Shown here: positions 16,168 to 33,442 of the stretch, in pieces
Layout of the letters: every line of letters starts with the position of its first letter
Numbering within the stretch: position 1 is the stretch's first letter
Assembly (NCBI GenBank): GCA_963760795.1
Contig: CAVXEP010000032.1
Span: 384,001 to 448,000, forward strand
DNA: 64,000 bases
Source: an uncultured delta proteobacterium
GTDB lineage: Bacteria > Desulfobacterota > Binatia > UBA9968
Direction: 5' to 3'
Position numbers and translations under genes: made by a program
Notes under the pieces: model-generated
Told to the model about the DNA's origin: nothing
Seen by the model: the letters and a program-made list of their open reading frames with translations, nothing else
Databases searched by the model: none

Positions 16168-16571
16168 TCGCGTCACCGGTGAACAGCGCCGGCATCATCT
16201 TCACGAGTCTGTTTTGCAACGCGCATTCAGGGATGCACGTATTAAAGCTGGTGTGTTTAAACATGCCGGGTGCCACACATTGCGCCATTCCTTTGCCACG
16301 CACCTATTAGAGAATGGCTACGATATCAGAACAGTTCAAGAACTATTGGGCCACAGATTGCCTTTACAACTTGTCTATTGGGAGGGCTGCCTCAACCAGA
16401 CAGACGCAACGCATCGAGAGAAATACTTAAGACCGCATGGGGAAAGCGATACGTGAAAACGAGGCTCAGGAATTATCTCACAGGGTAAACGACGTAAGCA
16501 CCACGATGATTTACACCCATGTGCTGAATCGAGGCGGCAAAGGCGTGCGCAGTCCCGCGGATGGGCTGTGA
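16168..16571 (+). pseudogene. intI: Integron integrase C-terminal fragment (platform 1), interrupted by a GIY-YIG fragment
   Basis: [13 protein letters not shown] (IntI-specific region), [28 protein letters not shown] | [27 protein letters not shown]. Confidence 0.92.
16355..16488 (+). pseudogene. GIY-YIG (UPF0213-like) nuclease C-terminal fragment
   Basis: [44 protein letters not shown] across one frameshift. Confidence 0.7.
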
Positions 16572-16644
16572 ATCACGGTTCCACGCTGCACGTATATTGA
16601 ATATACGAGACCAGCAATATTGGATATACGAGCGGCAGTGACAA

Positions 16645-16732
16645 TTGACAACCTGTTGATTGCAGGAGTAAATTTCGAATTGATGATTGTTGGATATCCA
16701 ATATACGAGATCAGTTCACTCAATAGTTAGGC
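16645..16732 (+). promoter_or_regulatory. Candidate Pc promoter and attI site (platform 1)
   Basis: TTGACA at 16645; ATATACGAG repeated three times nearby; TTCACTCAATA-GTTAGGC directly before the first cassette. Confidence 0.65.
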
Positions 16733-16764
16733 ACGTTGGCGTTGCCCGGAAGCAGTTTTCTGGC

Positions 16765-17568
16765 ATGACAAAGAGTAAGGTGAAAAGGATGCACCGTGAA
16801 ACGACGCCTATCGGAAATTGGCTCGCGATCGCCATGATTGCAACGAGCGCTGCGACTAACGTTACCATGGTGGCGGCTGCCGAGGTCGCGGTCCTGAGTC
16901 CAAACACAGTGAGGTCAGTCGTCACCGACGTTGCGGAGGCCTTTCAGCGAGAGACCGGGCACTCGGTTCGCTTCACGTTTCTTTCGACAGGAGCGGTGGA
17001 AAAACGAGCGAGGGTTGGAGAAGCTACCGACATCATTATCGCGACTGACGAGGCCATGGATCAGATGGCGAGTCAGAGTTTGGTTTTGCGTGACGCCCGC
17101 AGCGTTATTGGCCGAGTGGGTGTCGGGGTGGGCATTCGTGAAGGTACACCGAAGCCGGACATATCGAGCACGGATACCTTTAAGCAGACTCTGTTGTCCG
17201 CGAAATCCGTCACTTACTCGAACCCTGCGGGAGGAGGCGCGTCCGCAATCCATTTCTCCCGGGTCATCGAACGCTTGGGGATCTCACAGGCAATCAAGGA
17301 AAAGGCAGTGGTAGGTGGTTCAAACGTATGCGAACGTGTAGCGAAAGGTGAAGTCGACCTTTGCGTAACGCAGATCAGTGAAATTCTGCCAGTCAAGGGC
17401 GTTACTCTGGTCGGGCCCTTACCGCCGGACGTCCAGAACGTGACGACGCTTGTTGCAGCAATCTCCACTCGGTCCAGCGCCGTCGAAGCGGCAATGGAAT
17501 TCCTCACATTCTTGGTTCGCCCGTCGTCCAGAGCAAAGTTCGCCGAAGGTGGACTCGAATTTCGCTAG
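16765..17568 (+). CDS. Cassette: ModA-like ABC substrate-binding protein
   Basis: Signal-like N-terminus, GRVGVGVGIREGTPKPDISS, QISEILPVKGV..GPLP. Confidence 0.75.
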   Translation: MTKSKVKRMHRETTPIGNWLAIAMIATSAATNVTMVAAAEVAVLSPNTVRSVVTDVAEAFQRETGHSVRFTFLSTGAVEKRARVGEATDIIIATDEAMDQMASQSLVLRDARSVIGRVGVGVGIREGTPKPDISSTDTFKQTLLSAKSVTYSNPAGGGASAIHFSRVIERLGISQAIKEKAVVGGSNVCERVAKGEVDLCVTQISEILPVKGVTLVGPLPPDVQNVTTLVAAISTRSSAVEAAMEFLTFLVRPSSRAKFAEGGLEFR

Positions 17569-17612
17569 CAGCATAGACAGCGCTTGAGTCGGCGTGCTGA
17601 ACGTCGCGATCC

Positions 17613-17666
17613 GTCTAACCATCGGGTTGAGACGGACGAGTACGCCGCTCACCTAAAACGTTAGGC
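17613..17666 (+). mobile_element. attC site
   Basis: GTCTAAC..GTTGAG..CTCAC..GTTAGGC. Confidence 0.8.
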
Positions 17667-17794
17667 GGTACTGTGGGACGCGAACGAGGGAGTCACTTTA
17701 TGGTGGCCACGCTTCATGGCGGCACCATGAACCTCGCCATGCATCGGGCGAGCATTCCGACCACCTTGTGGTCATCCCGGCAAAGCGCCAGCAA

Positions 17795-18550
17795 ATGAGA
17801 AATCTTTTCGTAGACTCCTGGGGTACCGGCACGCTGGTGGTGCTGGTGCATGGCTCGCTCGCGACCGGCGCTGAGGAGTGGCAAGCGCAACGGCCGCTTG
17901 CCGATGAGGGGTTTCGCCTGTTGGTGTTTGACCGGCGCGGATATGGCCAGAGCCCTGTGGCGGAAGGTGAGGATTTCCTGCGCGATGCCCACGACATCGC
18001 CGCGCTTATGGGCGATGGTGCGCATCTCGTCGGTCACTCTTACGGGGGCCTCGGCGCACTGTTCGCAGCTGCCCGCCGTCCGGATGCGACGCTATCTCTG
18101 GCGTTGCTGGAGCCAGCTGTATTCGCGTTAGGCCTGCACCATCTAGCCGCGCGGGCCCTGGTGCATGAAGTTCGCGCCCTCTGGGATCAGGATCTCCCCA
18201 ATGAAGACTGGGTCATCCGCTTCTTGAAGGCGGTGGGGAGTGATCCTGATGTGCTGACCCCCGAGCTGATCGCCGCCGCCGTGCCGTTGGTGCCCGTGCT
18301 GCGCCGGGGGCGGCCTTTCTGGGACAGCGACCTGCCGCTGGCGGAGCTGGCGGCGGCGCCCTTTCCCAAGCTTGTCATATCAGGTGGACACAGCGCAGGG
18401 TTCGACGCGATGTGCGACGATCTCGCTGAACGCATCGGTGCATCTCGCGCGGTGGCGGCCGGTGCCGGCCATGAGATCCAGTTCACCGGGCGGCCTCTAA
18501 ACGAGTTGCTGCTCGCGCTGTGGCGCGGAGCGAACCCGCGGGCATGTTGA
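17795..18550 (+). CDS. Cassette: alpha/beta hydrolase
   Basis: LVHGS, DRRGYG, GHSYGG, GAGHE. Confidence 0.85.
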   Translation: MRNLFVDSWGTGTLVVLVHGSLATGAEEWQAQRPLADEGFRLLVFDRRGYGQSPVAEGEDFLRDAHDIAALMGDGAHLVGHSYGGLGALFAAARRPDATLSLALLEPAVFALGLHHLAARALVHEVRALWDQDLPNEDWVIRFLKAVGSDPDVLTPELIAAAVPLVPVLRRGRPFWDSDLPLAELAAAPFPKLVISGGHSAGFDAMCDDLAERIGASRAVAAGAGHEIQFTGRPLNELLLALWRGANPRAC

Positions 18551-18553
18551 ACC

Positions 18554-18621
18554 GCCTAACTTCCGGTTTCAGCCGACCGCCGCTCCTTCGCTCGCTTCGG
18601 CGGCTGAACCGTTCGTTAGAT
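18554..18621 (+). mobile_element. attC site
   Basis: GCCTAAC..TTCAGCCG..CGGCTGAA..GTTAGAT. Confidence 0.9.
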
Positions 18622-18638
18622 CGGCTAAGAACAGGAGA

Positions 18639-19013
18639 GTGACAATGCTTAATTACGAATTAAATCGCGCGGAGAGCATATTGATTGTTAAACCTATTGG
18701 CCCCTTGGAATCAACGGATTTCGAGAAACTAGTCCAAGAAGTGGATCCCTATATCAGAGAAAAGGGCAAACTTAATGGCTTGATGATTTACGCCAAATCC
18801 TTCCCGGGATGGGATAATTTCGCAGCCTTCCTGTCCCATATAAAATTTGTCAGAAACCATCATCAGAAAATCAAGAAGATTGCGGCCGTAACGGGCAGCA
18901 GTTTTCTATCGATCATGCCGCAGGTTGCCAATCATTTTGTAGAGGCCGAAGTAAGGCACTTTGACTACGATGACAAGGATGCAGCACTAAATTGGCTTAA
19001 GGCTGACAAATGA
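18639..19013 (+). CDS. Cassette: STAS/SEC14 (SpoIIAA-like) protein
   Basis: FPGWDNFAAFLSHIKFVRNHHQKIKKIAAV. Confidence 0.8.
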   Translation: MTMLNYELNRAESILIVKPIGPLESTDFEKLVQEVDPYIREKGKLNGLMIYAKSFPGWDNFAAFLSHIKFVRNHHQKIKKIAAVTGSSFLSIMPQVANHFVEAEVRHFDYDDKDAALNWLKADK

Positions 19014-19040
19014 GAATGATGAAGTATCATTTCTAAGCCG

Positions 19041-19127
19041 GTCTAACTTCAGCTGGTGCGGACGGCCCACGAGCGCGGTGCCATTTCAATCGCCTGTGCT
19101 GGCCCGTCGCACAGCACAACGTTGGGC
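19041..19127 (+). mobile_element. attC site
   Basis: GTCTAAC..GTGCGGACGG..CCGTCGCAC..GTTGGGC. Confidence 0.85.
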
Positions 19128-19277
19128 GTCCGGAGCAAAGGGCCGACGTGTTAGTGACGTGGATCCAGCCTTGGCCGTTAATAGACGACGGGCGAGCATC
19201 CGACTAGCTCTGACGCTTCGCTCTCAATAGGTTATGGTTTTCGGCTCTTCTTAGGCTGTCTAAGGGAGGTATATGCG

Positions 19278-20312
19278 ATGACTACGCCTTTGACGATCCT
19301 GTTAGCAGACGACCAAGTGCCTTGGGATACCAACGCTGAGAACGACAGAACCAAGGCAGAGATCCGTCGCGAGTTTGCCATTGCCAAGCCACACGTTGAT
19401 GTCGATACAGCATTTGCTGACGACTACGCCTGGTTCACTGGTCTATTGGCTTATCTTGAGCACACCAAAGATGAGACGGTCATTCGTGCGCGTACGTTCG
19501 ACGAGGCAAAGCAACACCTCGAGAACCCTCGCGGCCTAGATGTCGCAATCATCGATCTTTCCTGGTGGGGAGATTACCTACTTCCGCAGGGAGCCTCTCA
19601 CCGTAATAACCGAGGGCTCAAGCTTCTTCCGGCCGCGGGAGGCGCGATCCGCTCCAAGGTTCCGATCATCTCTCTATCACAGAACTTCAGCGATGACTTC
19701 GAACTGATAAGCACCGTCTTAGAACGTGGCGCTCTTCCCGTGCCCAAGAACTATAAAGATCGAGAACTGGGTTACAGGGCGCTCTATGCAGCGGTTCAGT
19801 ATCTGACACGGGAACGCAGGCGCGGTCGCTCGAAGGTGGAAGTCTTTGTTAGTCACGCCCATGAAGACAAAGACCTCGCGCAACGATTGGTGAGAGCCAT
19901 TGAATTGGGCCTACACGTTCCCTCTGATGCTATCCGATGTACGTCGGTCCCAGGCTACGATTTCACACCTGGCACCGATTTCGTCGAGGCGCTGAAGGAG
20001 GAGCTCACAGGAGCTTCATGCGTTGTAGGCCTTTGGACTCAGCGCGGTATGAAAAGTCAGTGGTGTCTTTTTGAGCTCGGAGCGGCGTGGGGTCTGGCCC
20101 ATAAGACCTTGTTCCTGTCGCTAGGCACTGAGGCTTTGCGAGATCCACCCGCAGGGTTTCGGTCAATCCACGCCTCGCAGCTAAGCGACGCTGGGCAGCT
20201 TCGAAGGTTTCTTGAGGAGCTGGGGCGCATTACTGCTTGGCCGAATAAAAATCGCCCCGCTGCGGAAAATGAGCTTGAAGATCTGGCCCAATTCGCTAGA
20301 ACATTGCCTTGA
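19278..20312 (+). CDS. Cassette: receiver-like N-terminal domain fused to a TIR domain
   Basis: ILLADD, DVAIID, PIISLS, PK (REC-like); VFVSHAHED, SQWCLFELGAAW (TIR_2). Confidence 0.7.
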   Translation: MTTPLTILLADDQVPWDTNAENDRTKAEIRREFAIAKPHVDVDTAFADDYAWFTGLLAYLEHTKDETVIRARTFDEAKQHLENPRGLDVAIIDLSWWGDYLLPQGASHRNNRGLKLLPAAGGAIRSKVPIISLSQNFSDDFELISTVLERGALPVPKNYKDRELGYRALYAAVQYLTRERRRGRSKVEVFVSHAHEDKDLAQRLVRAIELGLHVPSDAIRCTSVPGYDFTPGTDFVEALKEELTGASCVVGLWTQRGMKSQWCLFELGAAWGLAHKTLFLSLGTEALRDPPAGFRSIHASQLSDAGQLRRFLEELGRITAWPNKNRPAAENELEDLAQFARTLP

Positions 20313-20327
20313 ACCTTAAGGGCAGCC

Positions 20328-20419
20328 GCCCAACACGGCGATGCAGGGGACGCGCCGAACAGCGTAATCTAGCTTCCCAGAGACGTAGCGGCGCGCGCCC
20401 CTGATCTTATTCGTTAGGC
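20328..20419 (+). mobile_element. attC site
   Basis: GCCCAAC..ATGCAGGGGACGCG..CGCGCCCCTGAT..GTTAGGC. Confidence 0.88.
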
Positions 20420-20448
20420 CGCCCTATGGCGATCGGGATTCCTACGTA

Positions 20449-21009
<561 letters not shown>

Positions 21010-21146
21010 ACATCCGTCGAAGCGCAGCCCCAGACAGTCTGGTGGGTCAAGGTCAGGAACGACGCTGGCCTCGTTGGCTGGACTCTTGTTGACGAGAATG
21101 TCGGCGGTGCGGATATGGACGCGTGCTCGTGAACTGTTGGCGGGCG

Positions 21147-21236
21147 GCCTAACAAGCGCTTGAAGCTGCCGGTGCGCGTAGATTAGGGAATGAATCTTTC
21201 TTCAGCGCGCCGCAGCTTAAGCGCGGTCCGTTAGGC
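21147..21236 (+). mobile_element. attC site
   Basis: GCCTAACAAGCGCTTGAAGCTG..CAGCTTAAGCGC..GTTAGGC. Confidence 0.9.
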
Positions 21237-21254
21237 GTCAATCGAAAGGAAGGC

Positions 21255-21923
21255 ATGAAAATGACACGCGTCCGAGTTGAGGGCTTTACCATCTCGCTTG
21301 ACGGATACGGAGCTGGTCCGAATCAGGACATCAGGAATCCGCTCGGCGTGGGCGGGACAGATTTGCACCAGTGGTTAGTCCCGACACGCACGTTGCAACG
21401 GACCCTATTTGGCGCCGACGGTGGCACAACGGGGATCGATGACGACTTCGCTGCGCGGGGCTTCAAGAATGTTGGCGCCTGGATTCTCGGAAGAAACATG
21501 TTCGGACCGATTCGCGGTTCCTGGCCCGACATGAACTGGAAAGGCTGGTGGGGGGACAACCCACCCTATCACGTTCCAACTTTCATCTTGACTCATCACG
21601 CGCGCCCGCCCATCCAGATGGAAGGCGGAACGACATTCTACTTCGTCACGGGCGGTATTCACGAGGCGCTTGACCGGGCGCGCGACGCAGCCAACGGAAT
21701 GGATGTGCGCATTGGCGGCGGACCTAACACTATCCAGCAATATCTTCGTACGGGCCTCATCGATGAGCTGCACGTCGCTATCTCGCCGGTCCTGCTGGGC
21801 GGGGGAGAGCGACTGTTCGAGGGGATTGACGTGCGCGCTCTGGGATACGAATGCGTTCAGTTCGTTGCGTCGGAGAAAGCCACCCATGTTGTACTCCGGC
21901 GCCAAGGGCACAATGACGCCTAA
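21255..21923 (+). CDS. Cassette: RibD C-terminal/dihydrofolate reductase family protein
   Basis: ISLDGY, ILGRNMFGP, WWGDNPPYH, GLIDELH. Confidence 0.85.
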   Translation: MKMTRVRVEGFTISLDGYGAGPNQDIRNPLGVGGTDLHQWLVPTRTLQRTLFGADGGTTGIDDDFAARGFKNVGAWILGRNMFGPIRGSWPDMNWKGWWGDNPPYHVPTFILTHHARPPIQMEGGTTFYFVTGGIHEALDRARDAANGMDVRIGGGPNTIQQYLRTGLIDELHVAISPVLLGGGERLFEGIDVRALGYECVQFVASEKATHVVLRRQGHNDA

Positions 21924-21978
21924 CAACCGGTTGCAGCGGACGGCGCTGCCGCGCCGCCGCTGAACCGGAACGTTAGGC
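21918..21978 (+). mobile_element. attC site
   Basis: GCCTAACAACCGGTTGCAGCGG..CCGCTGAACCGGAACGTTAGGC. Confidence 0.92.
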
Positions 21979-22062
21979 GCCTTAGCATGTCTCCCGTAGA
22001 GTGAGAGTCTTCTTTAACACTGCTGGCATCGGTCACACCGAGCCCAGCCCGGAGGAGAACAA

Positions 22063-22422
22063 ATGAACCTGCAGAAAATTTACACCGCATTGCTCACCGC
22101 AGATCTTGCTGCGGCCGAGGGCTGGTATACGAAGCTGCTCGGTCGTGGACCGGACAACCGGCCGATGGACACGCTGGTGCAGTGGGAGCTCTTCGACCAG
22201 GGCGGATTGGCGCTTTCAAGCGACGACAAAATCGCCGGCAGGGGCGTGATGTTCCTTTACGTCGACGATGTCGCGGCCGAGCGCCGCAGGCTGCAGGGCC
22301 TGGGCATCGTGCTTGGCAACGACATTGAGGGTGACTACTCGACGCTGGCTCAGGTGCATGATCCCGACGGAAACCTGCTCACGCTGGCGACGCCGCCCTC
22401 GCGGCCCTTTCCACCTGCATGA
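22063..22422 (+). CDS. Cassette: VOC/glyoxalase family protein
   Basis: DLAAAEGWYTKLLG, YVDDV, DPDGN. Confidence 0.8.
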   Translation: MNLQKIYTALLTADLAAAEGWYTKLLGRGPDNRPMDTLVQWELFDQGGLALSSDDKIAGRGVMFLYVDDVAAERRRLQGLGIVLGNDIEGDYSTLAQVHDPDGNLLTLATPPSRPFPPA

Positions 22423-22454
22423 CCGCGCCAGAAGAGCGAAATCCGCGGCATGGC

Positions 22455-22513
22455 GCCTATCAACAGCATGCAGTGGACGGCGCTCGCGCCGCCGCTGATG
22501 CTGAGCGTTAGGC
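22455..22513 (+). mobile_element. attC site (left core site mutated to GCCTATC)
   Basis: CAGCATGCAGTGG..CCGCTGATGCTG..GTTAGGC. Confidence 0.85.
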
Positions 22514-22628
22514 GCAGCCGGTGAGCGCCGTTTTCCAAATGCAAGAATATGGAGTCAGAGAAGCTTTTTTGACGAGGGCTGATCCGGTGATCCGCTGCCG
22601 ACAGAATTTGTAGGACTAAAGTTACCGC

Positions 22629-22752
22629 ACGGCACGAGCCGTGAATCACGATTCCAGCTTATCCTCATCCTATTGTCCAGCGCGGCAACAATCGAACCGC
22701 GACCTTCTTTGTCGACGGTGATATGGCTTCTTCTTAGAATGTTTGCATCGGA
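22629..22752 (+). pseudogene. REP-associated/Y1 (RAYT-like) transposase N-terminal fragment
   Basis: ITIPAYPHPIVQRGNNRTATFFVDGD/GFFLECL resembles the RAYT N-terminus (PHHIVQRGNNR); degraded. Confidence 0.7.
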
Positions 22753-22771
22753 CCTTTTGGTTCAACCGGCT

Positions 22772-22864
22772 GAAGTAAGCACCACGATGATCTATACTCA
22801 TGTCTTGAATCGGAATGGAAAAGAAGTCCGAAGTCCGGCAGACGGATTGACGCAGGTATATTGA
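22772..22864 (+). pseudogene. intI: Integron integrase 3' tail (platform 2)
   Basis: [26 protein letters not shown]; the downstream non-coding DNA resembles platform 1 (GTATATTGA, TACGAG, ATTGACA..CTGTTG). Confidence 0.85.
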
Positions 22865-23045
22865 TACTAAGCTGACCAAGGATATAGGAAAAAGTACGAG
22901 TTAAACTGATTGACAGGCTGTTGTTCGAAAAGATAAAAGTTTGCGCACTGTGATTTTTGCAATCCGTAATGTATTGGTCAGGCGGCTAAGCACTTTTTTT
23001 GACCGGCGAGGGATAGATCGCCCTGCAAGTCACAGTGCGCAACGG

Positions 23046-24020
23046 GTGCGCTATATCGTCTACGGTGCAGGTTCGATCGGCGGCGTAATCGCGGGTCGGC
23101 TTTTCGAGCAGGGCGCAGACGTGGTACTTATCGCACGGGGAGATCATCTCGCCGCGATTAAGCACTCTGGCCTCACGATTGAATCACCGCTCGGGTCGGT
23201 GACACTGCCGGTGCTCGCGGTTGGACATCCGTCCGAGATCGACTTTCAACCGGCCGAAGACATCGTCCTTCTTGCTACGAAGACCCAGGACAGTGCACAG
23301 GCTCTCGACGACCTGCGGTGCGCCGCGGGTCCCGAAATCCCGGTGGTCTGTCTACAGAATGGAGTCGAGAGCGCACGGATTGCTCTCCGGCGTTTCGAAC
23401 ACGTAGCTGGCGCGATGATGATCTTCGGCAGCGCGCATCTGCAAGCGGGGATCGTTCAATCGTTCTCCGCGCCGGTCCCCGGCGTCGTCGACCTGGGTCA
23501 GTTCCCCGCCGGAGAAGACCCTTTTGTCGGTCGGGTCGCCCTCGATCTGCGTCGGGCTGGCTTCCACTCGGAGGTACGCCGGGATATCCTTCGTTGGCAA
23601 TACGGGAAGCTTCTGACAAACCTGAAGAATGTCCTACAGGCGCTTTGCGGCCCTGACGCAGAGTACAGGGACCTGTTCATGGATCTCCGCATGGAAGCCG
23701 AGTCCTGCTATCGAGCAGCGGGGATTGCCTACGCTTCGGAGTCGGAACTGAGCAGTCGTGCGCGCGGCCTATTGTACGGAGGTAGTCGGCTCGGAGATTC
23801 GTCTTGGCAGAGTCTGGCCCGCGCCACAGGCTCGATTGAAACCGACTTCCTTAACGGTGAGATTGTCTTGCTGGGCCGATTGCACGACGTCCCGGCACCC
23901 CTCAACTCGCAGCTCCAAGACTTGGCGAACCGATTTGCCCGCGAGCGTCGGCCGCCAGCTAGCCTGTCAGTTAACGACCTGCGCCAACTGTTGCGGGCGT
24001 CCCGTTCAAATTGCGGGTGA
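23046..24020 (+). CDS. 2-dehydropantoate 2-reductase (ApbA/PanE) family protein
   Basis: YGAGSIGG, LATKTQD, LQNGV, KLLTN, SSWQS..E.DFLNGEI. Confidence 0.85.
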   Translation: MRYIVYGAGSIGGVIAGRLFEQGADVVLIARGDHLAAIKHSGLTIESPLGSVTLPVLAVGHPSEIDFQPAEDIVLLATKTQDSAQALDDLRCAAGPEIPVVCLQNGVESARIALRRFEHVAGAMMIFGSAHLQAGIVQSFSAPVPGVVDLGQFPAGEDPFVGRVALDLRRAGFHSEVRRDILRWQYGKLLTNLKNVLQALCGPDAEYRDLFMDLRMEAESCYRAAGIAYASESELSSRARGLLYGGSRLGDSSWQSLARATGSIETDFLNGEIVLLGRLHDVPAPLNSQLQDLANRFARERRPPASLSVNDLRQLLRASRSNCG

Positions 24021-24023
24021 GAG

Positions 24024-25323: not shown

Positions 25324-25334
25324 CTTCTATTCAC

Positions 25335-25776: not shown

Positions 25777-25795
25777 CGACAGAGATACTTGGAAG

Positions 25796-26294: not shown

Positions 26295-26311
26295 GGCAAA
26301 AAACGACCGCA

Positions 26312-27097
26312 ATGAAGCTACCGCTCTACCAGATTGATGCCTTTACGGGTCGAATGTTCGGCGGGAATCCCGCGGCAGTGGTGCTGCTGGATGCCTGGCT
26401 GCCTGACGACGCACTGAGGGCGATCGCCGCGGAGAACAATCTTGCCGAAACCGCATTTGTGATCCCGCATGGGGAGATCATGCCGCTACGGTGGTTCACA
26501 CCAACGGTGGAGGTCGATCTGTGTGGACATGCAACCTTGGCGACCGCAGACGTGCTCTTCCGGAATACCTTGCCCTCGGCGAAACGCCTTACATTCAGCA
26601 CGCGCAGCGGAAATCTCACGGTTACTCGGGATGGCGATCTTCTCAGCATGGATTTTCCTTCCCGTCCCGGGAAGCCAGTGGAGATAGAAGATACCGTTGT
26701 TGCGGCCTTGGGCATTCGCCCCAGAGAGTTATATCGAGCGCGCGACTTGCTTGCGATCTACGAGTCGGAGTCTCAAATACACGACTTTCGCCCGGATTTC
26801 GGGCGCATCGCTTCTCTCGATGCCTTTGCGGTCATCATCTCCGCGCCCGGTGGAGCGGTGGACTACGTTTATCGGTTTTTCGCGCCGCGCCAAGGAATCC
26901 CCGAGGATCCTGTAACCGGGTCTGCGAATTGCACGCTCGTGCCGTATTGGGCGGCGCGCCTTGGCCGCTCCGAGCTGGTTGCAAAGCAGCTTTCAGCTCG
27001 CGGCGGCGACCTTCGTTGCGCGTTGCGCGGTGATCGCGTTTTGATCGCAGGACAAGCTGTCGAGTACTTGCGCGGAGAAATTACAGTTGCTGCTTGA
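26312..27097 (+). CDS. Cassette: PhzF family isomerase
   Basis: QIDAFT..GNPAAV, ETAF, EVDLCGHATLA, EDPVTGSA. Confidence 0.9.
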   Translation: MKLPLYQIDAFTGRMFGGNPAAVVLLDAWLPDDALRAIAAENNLAETAFVIPHGEIMPLRWFTPTVEVDLCGHATLATADVLFRNTLPSAKRLTFSTRSGNLTVTRDGDLLSMDFPSRPGKPVEIEDTVVAALGIRPRELYRARDLLAIYESESQIHDFRPDFGRIASLDAFAVIISAPGGAVDYVYRFFAPRQGIPEDPVTGSANCTLVPYWAARLGRSELVAKQLSARGGDLRCALRGDRVLIAGQAVEYLRGEITVAA

Positions 27098-27106
27098 TCA
27101 TTTGCC

Positions 27107-27171
27107 AGCTAACCCCTCGCTTCAGAACGGATCAGCCGCAGGCGGCCGGCCGCTGAGCTAGTATGTTATGC
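27107..27171 (+). mobile_element. attC site
   Basis: AGCTAAC..GCTTCAG..CTGAGC..GTTATGC. Confidence 0.8.
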
Positions 27172-27250
27172 GGCGTCGTTCTGAAGTCTTACATGACTAT
27201 CCTCCACTGTCTTGCAAATGAAATATATCTGGAACTTCTAGGATGAGAAC

Positions 27251-27670
27251 ATGAAAAAGTCGGGCGCGAGCCAAGGCCAGTCGGCATCGGAGCTCATCTC
27301 GAAAAGAATCGCCGAACTCGGGGACTGGCGCGGGGAAACCCTCAGCAGAATGCGCAAGCTCATCAAGGAAGCAGACCCGGACGTCGTCGAGGAGTGGAAG
27401 TGGATGGGCACTCCGGTTTGGTCGCACGACGGCATCATCTGCACTGGCGAATCCTACAAGAATGTCGTGAAGCTTACCTTCGCCAAGGGCGCGTCTCTGA
27501 AGGATCCGGCCCGTCTCTTCAACTCGAGTCTCGACGGAAACGTACGCCGCGCGATCGACATCCACGAAGGAGAAGAAGTTGACGAGTCCGCCTTCAAGGC
27601 GCTCGTTCGCCAAGCGGTCGCCCTCAACAGTTCTGGCAAGTCGAAACCTTCGAAGAAAGCGAAGTCCTAA
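27251..27670 (+). CDS. Cassette: DUF1801 (YdhG-like) protein
   Basis: [32 protein letters not shown]. Confidence 0.85.
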
Positions 27671-27731
27671 GGGATTCCGCCCCTGAACAGGTCCGACATC
27701 GGGCGAATTCCGTGAAACTCAGGCAATTGCC

Positions 27732-27791
27732 GCATAACAATTCATTCAAGCCGAACCCGCTTCGCGGGTCGGCTTAATTCAGGCGTTAGAC
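27732..27791 (+). mobile_element. attC site (classical 60-bp type)
   Basis: GCATAACAATTCATTCAAGCCGAACCCGCTTCGCGGGTCGGCTTAATTCAGGCGTTAGAC. Confidence 0.95.
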
Positions 27792-27802
27792 GGCACACGA
27801 GG

Positions 27803-28428
27803 ATGGGATCATTGCTCACATTGACTATTGTCTTCGTATTCGACGCTCGCGACGAGCGACCTGCTGGGTGCGGCTCGTGCCGAGGTGCCGGCGGGCACGC
27901 TTGAGATCCGTCTGGCCTCTGGGACTGCTTTGGAGCAAAGGGGACGGGAGCAGCTGGAACGCCTCCTGGCGACCCACGACCTCTCACGCTGGCTGTTCAC
28001 GCGGACCGTACAAATCCAATCACGGGTGATTCCGCACAGCCACCCGGTTCTCACACTGAACACGCAGTACCTCGACAACGACGCGGCGCAGCTAGCGAGC
28101 TTCCTTCATGAGCAACTGCATTGGTTTCTCGTTCAGAACCAGGCGAAGTTGGCGTCCGCGGTTACGGCACTGGAACGTCTGTATCCCAAGGTTCCAGAGG
28201 CGGCACGCCGAAGGGGCCAACGGCCGAGGCAGCACGTACCTCCACCTGCTCGTTTGTCTCCTCGAGTTTGACGCCGTGCGTGACGTCCTCGGGGAGACAA
28301 CGGCACGCGCTACACTCGGGGCCTTCGGGTACTACACGTGGGTGTATCGCGAGGTGCTCGAACGGCCCGAGGCAATCCGGCAGATCCTCCGCACACAGGG
28401 TCTTGACGTGCCAGACGCACGCCGTTGA
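27803..28428 (+). CDS. Cassette: hypothetical protein with an HExxH motif (frameshifted)
   Basis: IPHSHPVLTLN..FLHEQLHW, then STYLHLLVC..YTWVY in a second frame. Confidence 0.6.
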
Positions 28429-28431
28429 ATC

Positions 28432-28463
28432 GTCTAACAAGGCGACGGACGCCGACGTTGGGC
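28432..28463 (+). mobile_element. Internally deleted attC (32 bp)
   Basis: GTCTAAC and GTTGGGC cores kept, inner arms lost. Confidence 0.65.
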
Positions 28464-28488
28464 GGCGAGTTAGGAAGTGAGTGGAAGG

Positions 28489-29112
28489 ATGGAAGCTGAA
28501 GAATCAGAAGACGTTCTCAGGTTTTGGTTTCCCGAGCTCTCGGGCGCCGACCACGCGAGGATGGTCCGCCAATTTGAGTGGTGGTTTCGCGGTGGCGCGG
28601 ATTCTGCCATTGTTGAACGGTTTGCCCAGCTGCTGGAGCGTGCGACGCGCGGCGAACTCGATCACTGGTCTCAGTGGCCACGACCGCGGCTGGCGCTGAT
28701 CATCGTTCTGGACCAGTTCTCCCGCTCCCTGTTTCGGGACACGGCGCGGGCGTTCGCACAAGATCCGAAAGCCCTCGCGCTCGCGCTTGAAGGAATTGAA
28801 ATCGGTCACTATGCGGCTCTAAACACTCCTTGGGAGAAGACCTTCTTCTTCCTCCCATTGGGGCATTCCGAGCAGCTCTACCATCTGGAGCGGGCCGTCA
28901 CACTTGCCGAGGAGCTTGCGGGAAGTGCACCACCGGAACTGCGCAAGATTTTGGAGCACTCCGCGTCGCAGGCGCGTGGACATCGAGATGTAATCGCCCG
29001 CTTCGGTCGCCAGCCTCATCGCAATGCGATCCTCGGACGGCAATCGACCCCCGAGGAACTCGACTACCTGGCTAGCGAGAAACTCGTGCACACGCGTGCG
29101 CCACCCCAATAG
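28489..29112 (+). CDS. Cassette: DUF924 family protein
   Basis: VLRFWF, LIIVLDQFSR, LPLGHSE, RFGRQPHRN. Confidence 0.85.
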   Translation: MEAEESEDVLRFWFPELSGADHARMVRQFEWWFRGGADSAIVERFAQLLERATRGELDHWSQWPRPRLALIIVLDQFSRSLFRDTARAFAQDPKALALALEGIEIGHYAALNTPWEKTFFFLPLGHSEQLYHLERAVTLAEELAGSAPPELRKILEHSASQARGHRDVIARFGRQPHRNAILGRQSTPEELDYLASEKLVHTRAPPQ

Positions 29113-29159
29113 TCATGCGAGCAGCGCCGCCCAACCGATGCAGCGGACCGCTTCGAAGC

Positions 29160-29291
29160 AGGCTTTTTGCCCCCGAAATGATTGACAAGATGAAGCGAGT
29201 TGATTGATATGCAGCCGATATGAGTCCTAAATATTTACGAGGTTCGGGATATCCCGCCGGACGAACCGGCGGTTCACTTTAATAGTTCGGC
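29160..29291 (+). promoter_or_regulatory. Candidate Pc promoter and attI (platform 3), replacing the right half of the preceding attC (GCCCAAC at 29129)
   Basis: TTGACA-N17-TGATAT at 29182; TTCACTTTAATA-GTTCGGC; the next cassette ends in the complementary GCCGAAC; resembles 33299-33442. Confidence 0.65.
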
Positions 29292-29329
29292 GACACTCAC
29301 GCGTTGCTCAACTCATGGAGGATCAAGCA

Positions 29330-29728
29330 ATGCTCAAGACTTATGCCGGGGGCTGTCACTGTGGTGCTGTCAGATTCGAAGCCGAACTCGACCTATCGCA
29401 AAGCAGCTACCGATGTAACTGCTCGATCTGCCGTCGAAACCGATTCTGGGTGGCGGTCGCTAAGCCCGAGGGCTTTCGGTTGGTGAAGGGCGAAGGAGAG
29501 CTGACGGAGTACCTGTTCAATACTCGAAAGAATCAACATCTCTTCTGCAAGCACTGCGGTGTCCGTGCTTTCGGAGTCGGAAACGATACGCCAATCGGCA
29601 AGATGTACGGGATCAACATCGGGTGCCTTGAGGGCGTCTCTGAAGAGGAATTGTCGAAGATTCCTATCACCTATGTGGACGGCCGAAATAACAGGCAAGA
29701 GTCCCCCGAGTTTGTTGCGCATCTATGA
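29330..29728 (+). CDS. Cassette: GFA (CENP-V-like) protein
   Basis: GGCHCGAVRF, CNCSIC, FCKHCG. Confidence 0.9.
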   Translation: MLKTYAGGCHCGAVRFEAELDLSQSSYRCNCSICRRNRFWVAVAKPEGFRLVKGEGELTEYLFNTRKNQHLFCKHCGVRAFGVGNDTPIGKMYGINIGCLEGVSEEELSKIPITYVDGRNNRQESPEFVAHL

Positions 29729-29750
29729 ACGAGAATGGCTCGCGTAAGTT

Positions 29751-29840
29751 GCCGAACACCGGTTGCAGCGGACGGAGATAGATAAAGAGCCAAGGCACGT
29801 ACGTTGGCGCGCGCCGCCCCCTGAACCGGGACATTTAAAT
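29751..29840 (+). mobile_element. attC with a degenerate right core site; end of array 1
   Basis: GCCGAACACCGGTTGCAG..CTGAACCGG, no GTT core. Confidence 0.7.
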
Positions 29841-29996
29841 AAAGCTCCCCCTTTCTAGCATTTTCTACATCCTACGAACGCAGCGTGACTTTTCTGTCGC
29901 AGCTCGATCCTGCCGTTCTGAAGCTGTTGTCGATTGCTGATCTCGTCGTTTGTGTCCCGCTCTGGTGCCAGAGCAATTTTCCCGGAGTGCCCATTC

Positions 29997-30593
29997 ATGG
30001 CTTTATCTCCCGCGCAAAAACTTCGTCCCGCTATTCCATCGACGCCGTGGACGCTTGACGAGGTCGCCGGGCGATTCGTCGAGATCTCCGGAGCGGCGGC
30101 TTCGGCGGCGCTGACGCTGACGTTTACTTTGATTCGCGAGGCGCAGGCGCGCGGCGAGCCGGTGGGCTGGATCACCTTGGCGGAACATTCTTTTTATCCG
30201 CCGGATGTCGCTCAAGGCGGCACCGATCTGGCGGCGTTGGTGGTGGTGCGTTTAGCGCGCGCCGACAGCATCGCCCGCGCCGGCGAGAAGCTGCTGCGCT
30301 CCGGCGCTTTCGGCGTCGTCGTGCTCGATCTCGGCGCCGCCGATATGCCGATGCCGCTGCAGACGCGCTTGACCGGCCTGGCCCATCACCATCACACGGC
30401 GCTGATTTGTTTGACGGAAAAAACTCACGGCGCCTTTTCTCTCGGTTCGCTGGTTTCCTTGCGCGCCCATGCCGAGAAGAAGCGCTTAACAGACAATCGC
30501 TTCGCCTGCGCTCTGCGCGTGCTCAAGGACAAACGGCGCGGCCCCACCTGGACTTATGAAGAGCTCTATACCGGGCCGGCTGGCCTGTGTTGA
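29997..30593 (+). CDS. imuA: ImuA (RecA-like translesion synthesis accessory protein)
   Basis: GRFVEISG, FYPPD, KLLRSGAFGVVVLDL; overlaps the imuB start. Confidence 0.8.
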   Translation: MALSPAQKLRPAIPSTPWTLDEVAGRFVEISGAAASAALTLTFTLIREAQARGEPVGWITLAEHSFYPPDVAQGGTDLAALVVVRLARADSIARAGEKLLRSGAFGVVVLDLGAADMPMPLQTRLTGLAHHHHTALICLTEKTHGAFSLGSLVSLRAHAEKKRLTDNRFACALRVLKDKRRGPTWTYEELYTGPAGLC

Positions 30594-32100
30594 TCTGCCG
30601 GCGTTTCCATTGCAACTCTTGCTCCGGCGCCATCCCGACTGGGCCGGTCATCCGGCGGCGGTGGTGGCGCAGGACAAGCCGCAGGGGTTGGTCCTCTGGG
30701 TCAATGACAGCGCGCGCCGGCAGGGCGTGCTGCCCGGTCTGCGCTACGCCGCAGCGTTTGCGCTCGCGTCGACGTTGCGCGCCGGCGAAGTTTCTCCGGC
30801 TGAGAATGAAAAGGCGCTTGGCGATTTAACTCAGCGGCTGATGCGTTTTACTCCCGAGGTCGAGCCGGCGGCGCAAGAGCCCGGCGTTTTTTGGTTGAAC
30901 GGTGCTGGGCTGCAAGGTCTCTATGCTTCGCCCAAGCAATGGGCCAGCGCCATGCAACAAGATCTCTCCGCTCAGGGTTTTAGCGCCAATCTCGCCGTCG
31001 GTTTCAGCCGCTTCGGCAGTTATGCGGTCGCCAAGACGAAAGCGGGAATCACCATCTTTCGCGATGCTGTCGAGGAAAAGCAGGCGGCGAGCGCTGTGCC
31101 GCTCAACCGTTTGAACCTCGAGCCCAAGTTTCGCGATGCGCTGTTCAAGCTCGGCGTCAAAACTGTCGGCGCGCTGTTGTCCCTGCCGCCGGGCGGGCTG
31201 CGCGAGCGCTTCGGCAAACAAGCCCATCGTCTGCACCGCATGGCCGCCGGCGATCTGTGGACGCCGCTGGCGCCGAGCGTGACGGTGGAACCGGCGCGGC
31301 AGACGGCTATTCTCGATGACGCTGAGAGCGACAGCACCCGGCTGCTGTTTCTGATCAAACAACTGCTCCATCCATTGTTAACAACCCTCGCCGCGCGCCA
31401 TCAGGCGCTGGTCGCGCTCTGGTTATCTTTGCGGATCGATCACGGCGACTGCTTCAAAGAATCGCTGCGCCCAGCCGTGCCGACACTCGATGCCGTGCAG
31501 ATTCTCGATCTCGTCCGGCTGCGCTTGGAATCTCTTCAGCTTGCCGCCGGCGCGATCGAAATCGAGCTCTGCGCCGAAGCCTGCGCCGCCACCAGCGAGC
31601 AGTTGCGCTTATTTAACGAAAAACCAACCCGGGACCTCGAAGCCGCCAACCGCGCGCTGGCGCGTCTGCGCGCCGAGTTCGGCGACGACGCGGTGGTCTG
31701 CGCCAAGCTCACCGACGGCCATCTGCCCGAAGCAAGATTTACCTGGGAGCCGCTCACTCAAGTCAAACTTCCGACAAACGTTTTGAACGAAGCGAAGCGG
31801 TTGAACGATTTGAACGGCTTGAACCTCTCCACTCCAAATATGCTGATCCGCCGCGTCAACCAAAAGCCGATGCCCTTGGCCGGCGGCCCGTATCACAGCC
31901 ACGAAGACGGCTGGCTCGTCTTGGGCCCCAAGCATGGCACCATCGACAAACTCGCCGGCCCCTACGTCTTCGCCGGCGGCTGGTGGAACCGCGAGATCCA
32001 GCGCGAATACTACTACGCCGAAACCCGCCGCGGCGATTTGCTGTGGCTCTACTATGACCGGGTGAGAAGGAGATGGTTTCTTCAGGGCGCGGTCGAATGA
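30556..32100 (+). CDS. imuB: ImuB (inactive Y-family polymerase)
   Basis: ACVDLPAFPLQ, FTPEVE, GPYVFAGGWW..REYY..LWLYYD..WFLQG. Confidence 0.88.
   Translation: MKSSIPGRLACVDLPAFPLQLLLRRHPDWAGHPAAVVAQDKPQGLVLWVNDSARRQGVLPGLRYAAAFALASTLRAGEVSPAENEKALGDLTQRLMRFTPEVEPAAQEPGVFWLNGAGLQGLYASPKQWASAMQQDLSAQGFSANLAVGFSRFGSYAVAKTKAGITIFRDAVEEKQAASAVPLNRLNLEPKFRDALFKLGVKTVGALLSLPPGGLRERFGKQAHRLHRMAAGDLWTPLAPSVTVEPARQTAILDDAESDSTRLLFLIKQLLHPLLTTLAARHQALVALWLSLRIDHGDCFKESLRPAVPTLDAVQILDLVRLRLESLQLAAGAIEIELCAEACAATSEQLRLFNEKPTRDLEAANRALARLRAEFGDDAVVCAKLTDGHLPEARFTWEPLTQVKLPTNVLNEAKRLNDLNGLNLSTPNMLIRRVNQKPMPLAGGPYHSHEDGWLVLGPKHGTIDKLAGPYVFAGGWWNREIQREYYYAETRRGDLLWLYYDRVRRRWFLQGAVE
31777..31825 (+). repeat. 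TTGAAC tandem repeat lying in frame inside imuB
   Basis: aacgttttgaacgaagcgaagcggttgaacgatttgaacggcttgaac encoding NVLNEAKRLNDLNGLN. Confidence 0.7.
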
Positions 32101-32106
32101 TCGCTC

Positions 32107-32638
32107 CGTTCAAAAGTTCAACAGTTCAAAGGTTCAACGTATTTCGGAGCAGAGTTCTAAGAAGTAATTGGAGGTTTGTATGGCTGTGAAAGTGTTTGAA
32201 GACCTTGAGGTATGGAAAGAGGCTCGTCGGCTAACTCAAAGAATTTATCAGCTGACGAAAGATGAAAGCTTCGCAAAGGATTTCGGTCTACGTGACCAAA
32301 TTCGGCGGGCAGCTGTGTCGATCATGTCGAATATTGCCGAAGGATTTGAGCGGGGCGGTAATCAGGAATTCGTTCAATTTCTTTACGTCGCCAAAGCTTC
32401 GTGTGGTGAAGTGAGATCCCAGGTCTATGTGGCTTTCGACCAGAGTTACGTGGCGAACACAGCAGTCGACGAGCTGACAAACTCTTTCAAACGATTGTCG
32501 AGCATGATCAGCAATCTCATAACCTATCTCAGGAAAAGCGGCATGAAGGGTGAGAAGTTCAGAAAAACTGAATCGCCACCAAGCCGTCAGTAATTCCGAT
32601 TCTGGTCGTTGAACTTTTGAACGTTGAACGTTTAAACG
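32107..32638. mobile_element. GTTCAA/TTGAAC inverted-repeat element enclosing a four-helix-bundle gene
   Basis: Arms at 32107-32139 and 32607-32638 are near-perfect reverse complements. Confidence 0.7.
32180..32593 (+). CDS. Four helix bundle protein (23S rRNA-IVP-like, TIGR02436)
   Basis: FEDLEVWK, DQIRRAAVSIMSNIAEGFER, FLYVAKASCGEVRSQ. Confidence 0.92.
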   Translation: MAVKVFEDLEVWKEARRLTQRIYQLTKDESFAKDFGLRDQIRRAAVSIMSNIAEGFERGGNQEFVQFLYVAKASCGEVRSQVYVAFDQSYVANTAVDELTNSFKRLSSMISNLITYLRKSGMKGEKFRKTESPPSRQ

Positions 32639-32654
32639 AAATTAAGGAGTAACC

Positions 32655-32954
32655 ATGAACACCAATCGTTTTTTAAAAGTACATCCCGGCAGAATATTGT
32701 TAGAAGAATTCCTCGCCCCGCGAGGAGTGAGCGTCTGGCATCTTGCCCGCGACATCGGCGTGCCGACGCGGCGCGTTTATGACATCGTCCAGGGCCAGCG
32801 CGCCATCGACACCGACATCGCCCATCGGCTGGCGCATTACTTCGGTATGTCGGAGCGCTACTGGCTCGATCTTCAGGCGCGGTATGACGAGAATCAGAAG
32901 GATGACGTTTATCGAAGACGTGTTGCTCGTCATTGTCTAGCCGTAGCGAAGTAG
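32655..32954 (+). CDS. higA: HigA family antitoxin (no adjacent toxin)
   Basis: HPGRILLEEFL, LARDIGV, RLAHYFGMSERYWLDLQ. Confidence 0.85.
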   Translation: MNTNRFLKVHPGRILLEEFLAPRGVSVWHLARDIGVPTRRVYDIVQGQRAIDTDIAHRLAHYFGMSERYWLDLQARYDENQKDDVYRRRVARHCLAVAK

Positions 32955-33104
32955 GCTATGACCTGGTCATTTAACTGGATCTCTAATGTAGCTTAATCTT
33001 CCGCTGAACACGGAGTGATAAATGGCGCAGGACAACAATCCAAACTACTACACCAATCTCCAGCTCGTTCTTGAGGAACGTCGATGATCCGAGAAGTAAT
33101 TCGA

Positions 33105-33137
33105 AACGATTTGAACGGCTGGAACGTTTTGAACCTC
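33105..33137 (+). repeat. TTGAAC/TGGAAC tandem repeat
   Basis: aacgatttgaacggctggaacgttttgaacctc; shares a 16-bp exact match with the imuB internal repeat. Confidence 0.7.
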
Positions 33138-33155
33138 GATTTCAATTTGGTTTTG

Positions 33156-33229
33156 ACCAGCACGTTGATTTAAACGCACTATTGAACCGTGGCGGCAGAG
33201 GCGTGAACAGCCCAGCTGATCATCTATGA
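33156..33229 (+). pseudogene. intI: Degenerate integron integrase 3' tail (platform 4)
   Basis: TSTLI*TH/LNRGGRGVNSPADHL*. Confidence 0.8.
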
Positions 33230-33320
33230 TCTATAATAGTGGAAGCGTTGGCTGGAATAACCCGGCAATCGCTAGGGAGAGAGGCCGCCGGCCCAGCGGC
33301 TTTTGGCGGAGATTTTCACG

Positions 33321-33442
33321 TTGACAAGTTGGGGTAGCTGTTTGATATTGCAACCGATTTGGATTTTGGTGTCAGAGGCGTCGCCGGAGCTAAGCCGACC
33401 GGCTTTTGTCGCCGGCTACGGCGGCTCACTTAATAGTTGGGC
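33321..33442 (+). promoter_or_regulatory. Candidate Pc promoter and attI (platform 4)
   Basis: TTGACA-N17-GATATT; CTCACTTAATA-GTTGGGC; the first cassette ends in the complementary GCCCAAC. Confidence 0.7.

Follow-up and report, generated by a model that had tools for sequence, protein, structure and literature searches.

Probable remains of two tandem inverted-integrase integrons within an SOS-mutagenesis gene cluster of an uncultured Binatia bacterium

How does one stretch of gene cassettes come to contain the ends of three integron integrase genes and four promoter/attI blocks, with no integrase left whole? The question is raised by a metagenome-assembled genome of an uncultured bacterium of the Binatia (GCA_963760795.1; 6.58 Mb, 35 contigs, 89% complete, 6% contaminated), of which we analyzed one stretch of 64,000 nucleotides (nt) in contig CAVXEP010000032.1, here called the window (G000:C32:384001-448000). 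An integron cassette array occupies 16.1-46.5 kb of the window and includes three 3' stubs of intI and four promoter/attI blocks (hereafter platforms), all on the plus strand; from approximately 16.7 to 46.5 kb, almost every long open reading frame (ORF) lies on that strand as well. The gene order is lexA - [integron A] - imuA-like - imuB-like - IVP - higA-like - [integron B] - ~20 kb - dnaE2. We conclude that the locus belongs to the sedentary chromosomal integrons with inverted integrase, in which intI, promoter, attI, and cassettes share one strand. As to the history of the locus, the explanation that we favor, at a probability of roughly 0.78, is that two tandem integrons split an SOS-mutagenesis gene cluster, that every integrase has been destroyed, and that two of the four platforms (X and Y) are relics buried in array A.

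Integrase stubs, platforms, and attC sites

The stubs, the platforms, and the sequences at their junctions are the following:

16100..16571, plus strand: intI-A relic (stub 1); leader GGCGGAAGCCTA.. and first codons, then a deletion of approximately residues 20-262
16356..16487, plus strand: remnant (3' part, 133 nt) of a GIY-YIG gene, inside intI after the ..ELLGH codons
16572..16732, plus strand: platform A (block 1); three ATATACGAG repeats, -35/-10 at 16645-16674, predicted attI core CACTCAATAGTT/AGGC
22514..22745, plus strand: 5' part of an IS200/RAYT-like transposase cassette, cut off after approximately 35 codons; family name from reading the translation
22757..22864, plus strand: intI-X stub (stub 2), the last 26-31 codons
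22865..22981, plus strand: platform X (block 2); -35 TTGACA at 22910, TGGTCAG-type repeats, attI crossover site lost
29129..29160, plus strand: left half of an attC (GCCCAAC CGATGCAGCGGACCGC), right half absent, fused to platform Y; compared by eye with the consensus
29161..29291, plus strand: platform Y (block 3); -35 TTGACA at 29182, GGATATCCCGCCG repeat, predicted attI core TTCACTTTAATAGTT/CGGC, no intI stub
33147..33229, plus strand: intI-B stub (stub 3), approximately 27 codons with a premature stop and a frameshift
33230..33442, plus strand: platform B (block 4); -35/-10 at 33321-33349, predicted attI core CTCACTTAATAGTT/GGGC

Stubs were searched for by tblastn with seven full-length IntI proteins of relatives (L009-L015; 445-471 bits with the TIGR02249 profile). 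Stub 1 was recovered in two pieces, 16154/16160-16357 (66-68 amino acids (aa), 70-89% identity) and 16473/16488-16568, the same two pieces that TIGR02249 finds (94.1 and 33.8 bits); stub 2 was recovered at 22757/22772-22849/22858 (26-31 aa, identity up to 88%; TIGR02249 24.8 bits); and stub 3, at 33179-33226/33259 (16-27 aa, E 2e-4 to 0.26), is visible to tblastn only, the profile picking up the first two. Further matches of these queries in the window had E values of 0.004 or worse, bar one at 32755-32889, which is the helix-turn-helix (HTH) gene that stands in frame upstream of intI in the relative G014. The fragments cover TIGR02249 model positions 227-315, 289-315, and ~300-315, all below the curated cut-off, and are pseudogene pieces of IntI family members rather than members themselves. 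In a search of this genome with the same profile, no intact intI was found, the best match being stub 1 at 94.1 bits against a cut-off of 265.

The original prediction for this locus, made from the letters of the sequence, had held that there are three different intI 3' tails and a fourth block without a tail, with no intact integrase, and all four blocks are indeed where it placed them. Its tail positions were right as well, although stub 1 proved longer than proposed (residues 263-331 and a leader) and the reading frame of stub 3 is broken by an early stop and a frameshift. Nor are the remnants local duplicates of one gene: stubs 1 and 2 share 76% nucleotide identity across 74 nt, and the platforms belong to more than one subtype, as shown below.

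The ORFs of the array are separated by imperfect palindromes with GCCTAAC...GTTAGGC ends (attC consensus GCCTAACnATCGGTTGCAGCGGACG). Home-made attC finders were too strict or noisy and a 12-sequence alignment was too gappy, and a covariance model built from seven window sites, run with filters off, was used instead. In the window it gave 35 matches at E ≤ 10, including 17 distinct plus-strand sites at E ≤ 0.1, all within 17613-46527; seven of the 17 are the seeds and match by construction. Minus-strand matches in the array are lower-scoring mirror images of plus-strand sites, and outside the array there was no match at E ≤ 0.1 (best E 2.3). An Rfam scan of the whole window at gathering thresholds returned no matches. 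Stubs and attC sites thus all lie on the plus strand with intI upstream of attI, as in an inverted-integrase integron, and all blocks point toward the cassettes, as had been predicted. The co-oriented attC array of a complete integron is present, but its intact integrase is not; an attC array in a genome without intact intI is what defines a cluster of attC sites lacking an integrase (CALIN).

The resemblance among the platforms goes beyond their position. TTGACA starts at 16645, 22910, 29182, and 33321, and follows the three stub stop codons by 74, 46, and 92 nt, in agreement with the approximately 45-90 bp originally given. All four blocks have a -10-like hexamer 16-18 nt beyond TTGACA, forming a predicted promoter. 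The motif AATAGTTVGGC is found exactly at 16722, 29281, and 33432, in blocks 1, 3, and 4; with at most one mismatch it has 5 matches as compared to 1.76 expected, a number reached by 5 of 100 shuffles. The predicted attI core of these three blocks, (T)CACTYAATAGTT/RRRC, occupies the same place as in the platforms behind the intI genes of relatives, and beyond it the sequence varies between genomes. In five relatives, the sequence from the intI stop to the first cassette runs through short direct repeats, TTGACA, a -10-like hexamer, and ..CACTYAATRGTT, after which it diverges.

When the four blocks were aligned, as the original prediction had proposed, they sorted into subtypes with the relatives' platforms, exact TTGACA being present in 10 of 13 aligned platforms. 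Block 1 groups with the position-A platform of G013 (position A lying after lexA, position B after the higA-like gene) and with that of G005, at 73-86% identity; for platform A itself, identity is 86% with the platform after the intact intI of G013 and 73% with the G005 platform. Block 2 groups with G009 and G044 (65-80%), platform X being 65% identical to the former and 68% to the latter. Blocks 3 and 4 group with two integrase-less blocks, from G044 and G013 (54-82%); platform Y is 82% identical to the integrase-less G044 platform and 60% to block 4. The predicted likeness of block 1 to block 2 and of block 3 to block 4 is present but modest, at 69/136 (51%) and 90/150 (60%) aligned positions, respectively.

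These comparisons speak to the suggestion that the blocks have nothing to do with integron platforms, being promoter or regulatory repeats of a generic kind, and that the stubs match IntI by chance. It would fit the mere 51% identity of blocks 1 and 2 and a count of promoter-like sites in the region that is at chance level; but the blocks align with the intI-stop-to-first-cassette sequence of five relatives that have intI, and the stubs match IntI C termini at up to 88-90% aa identity, so that we give this suggestion almost no credence.

Tandem integrons in relatives and the loss of integrases

Relatives of the genus share the locus in the form lexA-[intI-attI-cassettes]-imuA-imuB-IVP-higA-like-[intI-attI-cassettes]...dnaE2. 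The most complete picture comes from G013, whose flanking genes share 87-96% aa identity with those of the window and in which both intI genes are intact, in the order lexA-IVP-intI-attI-14 kb of cassettes-imuA-imuB-IVP-HTH-intI-attI-cassettes; the search for an intact intI in related genomes, a check proposed with the original prediction, thus succeeded. G005 and G014 have imuA-imuB-IVP-HTH-intI, with an intact intI after the HTH gene as in G013, and in G018 and G044 imuA-imuB-IVP-HTH is followed by a platform from which intI is missing. Upstream of imuA, all four have attC sites. All 46 of 46 attC matches in the fetched loci of five relatives are on the intI strand. In the more distant records L032, L033, and L035, lexA, imuA, imuB, and intI are contiguous, and there is no array between lexA and imuA.

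Because G013 has intact integrases at both positions, we conclude that blocks 1 and 4 are two ancestral tandem integrons that decayed in place; that stub 1 keeps its own leader and first codons likewise indicates that integron A decayed where it stood. With two platforms kept intact in relatives, the stubs are best understood as the wreckage of whole integrons. The last attC before imuA has an identical junction (..GTTAAATAAAGCT..) in G013 and G014, with unrelated left parts of the attC; in the window the core at this junction is mutated, and G018 is more distant. This common attC-imuA junction fits a single founding of array A.

The manner in which the integrases were lost can be read in part from the relics. 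At the nucleotide level, the intI-A relic matches the G013 intI 3' end and platform at 96% and 90% identity. After the deletion, it consists of approximately residues 263-331 (16160-16357), an insert, and residues 332-357 (the last 26-27 codons, 16488-16571). An intI gene of G043 carries, at the same codon, a 277-nt insertion (L112 10725-11001) that encodes an 87-aa ORF with a GIY-YIG domain (PF01541, 50 bits), and the 133-nt insert matches the 3' part of this insertion at 93% identity over 168 nt; the window remnant is only the 3' 133 nt and is frameshifted, so the domain match comes from the full copy in G043. The insert is missing from the G013 intI at that exact point, and as a repeat it has no second copy in its own genome. 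From its placement, the GIY-YIG gene looks like a site-specific, homing-like invader of intI genes.

In G009, the stub found after lexA-IVP shares 93% nucleotide identity with stub 2 over 72 nt. In integron B, the HTH gene is complete and, approximately 190 nt further, about 27 damaged intI codons are left. We envision that integrase A was lost through an earlier insertion of the GIY-YIG gene and an internal deletion, and integrase B through near-total deletion and a frameshift. Each loss spared the downstream promoter block and, in three of four cases, the attI site.

Two further observations concern the intI-A relic. By eye, the intI sequence flanking the GIY-YIG insert is only ~75% alike between the window and G043, and the remnant itself 93%. 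Just upstream of the position-A intI start (16100-16135), a near-palindrome, GGCGGAAGC(C/T)TATCC, is kept in four genomes (including G009, G013, and G018) and is a candidate intI operator or promoter element.

Loss of intI with the platform kept recurs in the genus. An intI match over the cut-off is present in 9 of 31 genomes of the genus, with 11 full-length genes in six genomes, three of them in the unpublished G004, and fragments or frameshifted copies occur in many. At the present locus, intI is gone and the platform kept in G044 and G018 at position B and in G009 at position A. Integrase-less X- or Y-like platform blocks are also found at other loci of relatives (L085, L087, L088, L090, and L091), and five of six fetched integrase-less blocks elsewhere have an attC (E ≤ 0.1) 0.3-2.3 kb downstream on the same strand. 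Two such copies in G044 have 540 nt in common at 90% identity, including approximately 435 nt upstream of the block. Elsewhere in the genus, intI occurs as fragments or broken copies at seven further loci (L106-L112), in which no lexA, imuA, imuB, IVP, HTH, or dnaE2 gene was recovered by tblastn at E ≤ 1e-3; these are therefore separate integron loci, uninformative on stacking here. Two candidates picked as stubs by open-frame length (G003:C7 and G013:C15:28.7 kb) were rejected, having no attC-like cores nearby and looking like other tyrosine recombinases.

Platforms X and Y inside array A

If A and B decayed in place, X and Y require another explanation, and their upstream junctions are the chief guide to it. 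At X, an attC (22455-22513) is followed by the normal start of the transposase cassette, a break, and the last 26-31 codons of intI; the transposase fragment shares 82% nucleotide identity over 101 nt (22643-22742) with the start of a full-length gene in G014 that lies between two attC-like sites. A fifth stub, considered at 22637-22660 from its likeness to the end of stub 1, was ruled out, this being the start of the transposase gene. At Y, the half attC joins the platform approximately 20 nt upstream of the -35 hexamer, and the covariance model has no full match there (29129-29160). None of the junctions at A, B, X, and Y falls at the integron crossover point, and to judge from their anatomy, the upstream junctions of X and Y look illegitimate, each made by one non-homologous join. 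Downstream, platform X departs from G009 and G044 just before the ..TATACTCA(A/T)TGGTT/AG core. G009 carries lexA-IVP-intI stub-platform of the X subtype; its place directly after lexA-IVP suggests that X once sat next to lexA. Together the two junctions imply that cassettes once lay upstream of an intI, an arrangement that is itself a stack.

The original prediction held that the array grew by capture of whole segments of intI tail, promoter (Pc), attI, and cassette from different integrons, which would amount to segments already truncated elsewhere being inserted by an integrase as oversized cassettes. There is something to recommend this: the relics lie within attC-bounded units (X within 22510-24422, Y within ~27788-29839) that an integrase could in principle move, integrase-less platform blocks with one or two attC sites are scattered in relatives, and a RibD_C cassette 97.8% identical in nucleotide sequence to one in G014 indicates that cassettes have moved recently. 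Part of the literature on mobile integrons also describes cassettes with partial attI sites (PMC12901181). However, capture is inapplicable to blocks 1 and 4, whose positions hold whole integrases in G013; the X stub starts after 245 nt of another cassette and the Y platform after half an attC, neither being a crossover point; and a donor with cassettes upstream of intI, itself a stack, would still be needed. Growth of the array by such capture is thus not upheld, and we regard it as an unlikely source of X and Y.

The internal relics could alternatively be an assembly chimera or the product of strain mixing, to which the 6% contamination of the genome and the confinement of X and Y to it would lend themselves. 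Against this stand the recurrence of the A...imuAB...B structure in genomes of other species in the genus that were assembled independently, the fact that the X and Y junctions join unrelated sequences outside the repeats where mis-joins are expected, and stubs that are only 76% alike; we consider an artifact of this kind very improbable.

Under the favored history of two tandem integrons with buried relics, X and Y would once have been complete intI-Pc-attI units in array A, upstream of their own cassettes, and would each have lost the integrase in a non-homologous join, with its left end in a cassette for X and within an attC for Y. We favor, from junction anatomy, the arrival of new platforms and cassettes at the lexA-proximal end, probably by homologous recombination on one side only, in lexA/IVP, and an illegitimate join on the other. 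In a single step, such a join would cut the resident integrase and bring in a new proximal platform, older platforms being pushed distally. Other routes are possible, namely insertion of whole integrons followed by deletion, or integrase-mediated movement of attC-bounded composite units.

Several points weigh against this history. X and Y are found only in this genome; an attI-core motif scan of the loci of G005, G013, G014, G018, and G044 showed no internal platform, a weak negative because the motif also misses the cores of block 3 and of position B in G013; and an ancestor with three or four complete integrons was not seen among the relatives examined. Both the arrival order and the recombination route are read from junction anatomy. 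One platform subtype sits at different positions in different genomes, implying that platforms move or are swapped by a route that this does not indicate. The retention of the promoter after every deletion could be ascertainment bias, since relics are recognized by their platforms. A simple promoter scan called blocks 1 and 4 (each 10 of 12) but not blocks 2 and 3, and its total for the region was 7 sites as compared to 6.4 expected by chance. Finally, the genome is 89% complete, so that an integrase could still lie elsewhere in it.

At present, the locus would be a CALIN with intI pseudogenes, its cassettes read from up to four relic promoters approximately 4-6 kb apart. The idea that the blocks act as internal promoters, part of the original prediction, is plausible from their sequence; of the several insertion points that it foresaw, at most three usable attI sites are left (blocks 1, 3, and 4), because block 2 has lost its crossover site. 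Only an integrase provided in trans would be expected to rearrange the array, acting on attC sites and on the attI cores of platforms A, Y, and B.

Cassettes, the SOS-mutagenesis cluster, and known integrons

The cassette ORFs are a mix of small enzymes and unknowns (solute-binding protein, hydrolases, TIR, RibD_C, glyoxalases, PhzF, DUFs, PLD, and ankyrin):

16729..22513, plus strand: proximal array A; seven cassettes, each with an attC (solute-binding protein, alpha/beta hydrolase, SpoIIAA-like, TIR, two RibD_C, glyoxalase); attC at 17613, 18554, 19041, 20328, 21147, 21918, and 22455
22982..29128, plus strand: middle array A (ApbA/PanE, RlaP (frameshifted), DUF2200, ORF without Pfam match, PhzF, DUF1801, ORF without Pfam match, DUF924); attC at 24350, 25267, 25683, 26192, 27108, and 27732, and a weak one at 28432
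29289..29839, plus strand: last cassette of array A, GFA family (Pfam); attC 29751-29839, E 0.065
33439..46527, plus strand: array B (hydrolase, SnoaL-like, acetyltransferase, PLD, ankyrin, glyoxalases, RidA, RibD_C, cupin, NMT1-like); attC at 33972, 45383, and 46468, and weak ones at 34824, 38035, and 41642

The right-hand core of the GFA cassette attC is CATTTAAAT, and G013 and G014 have GCGTTAAAT. Three array B cassettes have homologues of 80-85% aa identity at the same position in the G044 array. The RibD_C cassette with its attC (21208-21930) is the one noted above as 97.8% identical, over 723 nt, to a G014 cassette, whereas the neighboring imuB-like protein is only ~80% identical at the aa level between the window and G014, which suggests recent exchange of cassettes between lineages. 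The RlaP (RNA-repair nucleotidyltransferase) cassette, 24466-25222, has two overlapping frames, representing a frameshift or a sequencing error. Two cassettes encode a TIR domain (19278-20312) and a PLD-like protein with two HKD motifs (39534-40817), respectively; TIR and PLD-like domains are frequent in defence systems.

The genes that the integrons interrupt are the following:

15339..15358, plus strand: perfect palindrome TACTG-N10-CAGTA overlapping the lexA promoter
15369..15977, plus strand: lexA (TIGR00498, 213 bits, cut-off 111; Pfam LexA_DNA_bind and Peptidase_S24; 93.6% aa identity to the G013 copy)
15990..16078, strand not assigned: inverted pair of (GTTCAAnn)n / (TTGAACnn)n 8-mer arrays with nothing between the arms
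29934..32100, plus strand: imuA-like gene (219 aa, RecA fold) overlapping an imuB-like gene (514 aa, Y-family polymerase fold)
32168-32593, plus strand: IVP four-helix-bundle gene (PF05635, 125 bits), flanked by inverted 8-mer arrays
32655-32954, plus strand: HigA-family HTH gene (TIGR02436; TIGR02607, 77.7 bits, cut-off 47.7)

Past the end of the window by 3.3 kb and on the same strand lies dnaE2 (G000:C32:451295-454483; NF004225, 1238 bits, cut-off 939), which is also found downstream of position B on the same strand in G013, G014, G018, and G044; the G013 counterpart has three in-frame stops. The imuA-like protein matches Pfam RecA at 33.8 bits and the ImuA model NF033429 at 29.3 bits against a cut-off of 150; the imuB-like protein matches the IMS domain (PF00817) at 39 bits (cut-off 23.2) and no NCBIfam model over its cut-off, the best being DNA polymerase IV models. 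The pair is 72-87% identical at the aa level to that of five relatives. The names imuA and imuB are given here with the suffix -like, as they come from RecA-fold and weak IMS-domain matches and from gene order, the ImuA equivalog model scoring far below its cut-off.

The palindrome at lexA, which also stands upstream of lexA in G013, is a candidate LexA box; it is the sole match without mismatch in the window, where matches at up to two mismatches number 15 as compared to 8.8 expected. A scan of the window found no LexA-box-like palindrome upstream of imuA or at the platforms and only the one perfect palindrome, at the lexA promoter. A conserved stretch upstream of imuA (29840-29935; ..TTTTCTACAT..CGAACGC..) is common to four relatives, with a 14-nt unit occurring four times in G014, and may be a regulatory site, though it holds no CTG-N10-CAG box. 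Tandem (TTGAACnn)n 8-mers, often in inverted pairs, are a dispersed repeat of this genome (104 matches as compared to 0 in a reversed control). Such arrays flank IVP genes (32100-32140 and 32608-32640, also 33102-33134); at 15990-16078, where G013 and G009 (L075) have a four-helix-bundle IVP gene between lexA and intI, the gene is gone and the arms are kept.

The lexA-imuA-imuB-dnaE2 SOS mutagenesis cassette is LexA-regulated. The present locus shares with it the LexA, RecA-fold, Y-family-like, and error-prone DnaE2 genes on one strand, but differs in being interrupted twice by integrons and in the assignment of imuA and imuB by weak domains and order. Of 44 IntI-relative loci from a species collection, 22 extend 3.3 kb or more upstream, and in 6 of these 22 imuA-like and imuB-like genes precede intI on the same strand; the six include one record labelled Thermoanaerobaculia, with an IntI that is 56% identical. 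This record (L040 6741-11191) carries, in one direction, a RecA-fold gene, an IMS-domain gene, a ParE-toxin-like match, and an integron integrase, the ParE-toxin-like match being weak (22.3 bits, just under the 23-bit cut-off). The linkage of imuA, imuB, and intI in L040 hints that the linkage is selected rather than accidental. We tentatively suggest, as a possibility that we hold less likely than its converse, that integrons built into the lexA-imuA-imuB-dnaE2 operon tie integrase expression to DNA damage by position and that lexA/IVP serves as a landing pad for stacked platforms. Integrase expression would then come by read-through from LexA-controlled lexA or imuA promoters and not from a LexA box in a dedicated intI promoter, and repeated one-sided recombination would bury old promoters and attI sites as internal points of expression and insertion.

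The original prediction regarded the locus as a candidate undescribed system, which does not hold for its layout: two reports (PMC13323075 and PMC3607928) already describe inverted-integrase integrons. Such chromosomal integrons, of the Treponema type and termed 'inverted integrase integron' in IntegronFinder 2.0, are likewise on one strand and sedentary; here, in contrast, two stand in tandem inside lexA-imuA-imuB...dnaE2, with platform relics within an array and all integrases broken. Cury et al. report that 15 of 279 CALINs had intI pseudogenes no more than 10 kb away, and name intI loss as one possible origin (PMC4889954). Like those CALINs, the present locus is an attC array without functional intI, but it has three stubs and four kept promoter/attI blocks in one locus, and intact ancestral states exist in relatives. 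Delta-attI-type cassettes carry a partial attI inside cassette arrays and can be recombined by IntI1 (PMC12901181); they belong to clinical class 1/2 elements of divergent layout, whereas here whole co-oriented platforms, with intI 3' ends and promoters, are buried, and the junctions are off crossover points. A search of titles and abstracts, outside subscription journals and supplements, found no integrons inside an imuA-imuB-dnaE2 cluster and no tandem chromosomal integrons, nor, in the literature searched, a case of platforms kept genus-wide after integrase loss. Within that literature we found no description of inverted-integrase integrons that are tandem, stacked, and decayed and stand inside a lexA-imuA-imuB-dnaE2 cluster, an arrangement that we take to be new.

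For annotation, this means that a locus of this kind will be listed as an integrase-less array if no search is made for short intI stubs and platform blocks. For the biology of these bacteria, two routes of stress-induced variation, error-prone synthesis and cassette shuffling, stand in one co-directional gene string beside lexA, which raises the question of whether the integrase of an inverted integron could come under SOS control through co-transcription. The usual picture of an integron is one of a single integrase, attI, and promoter, with distal cassettes silent. The present locus and its counterparts in relatives suggest that co-oriented integrons can stand in tandem, that integrases are repeatedly lost in the genus while platforms persist, and that after integrase decay the promoter and attI relics could keep distal cassettes expressed.

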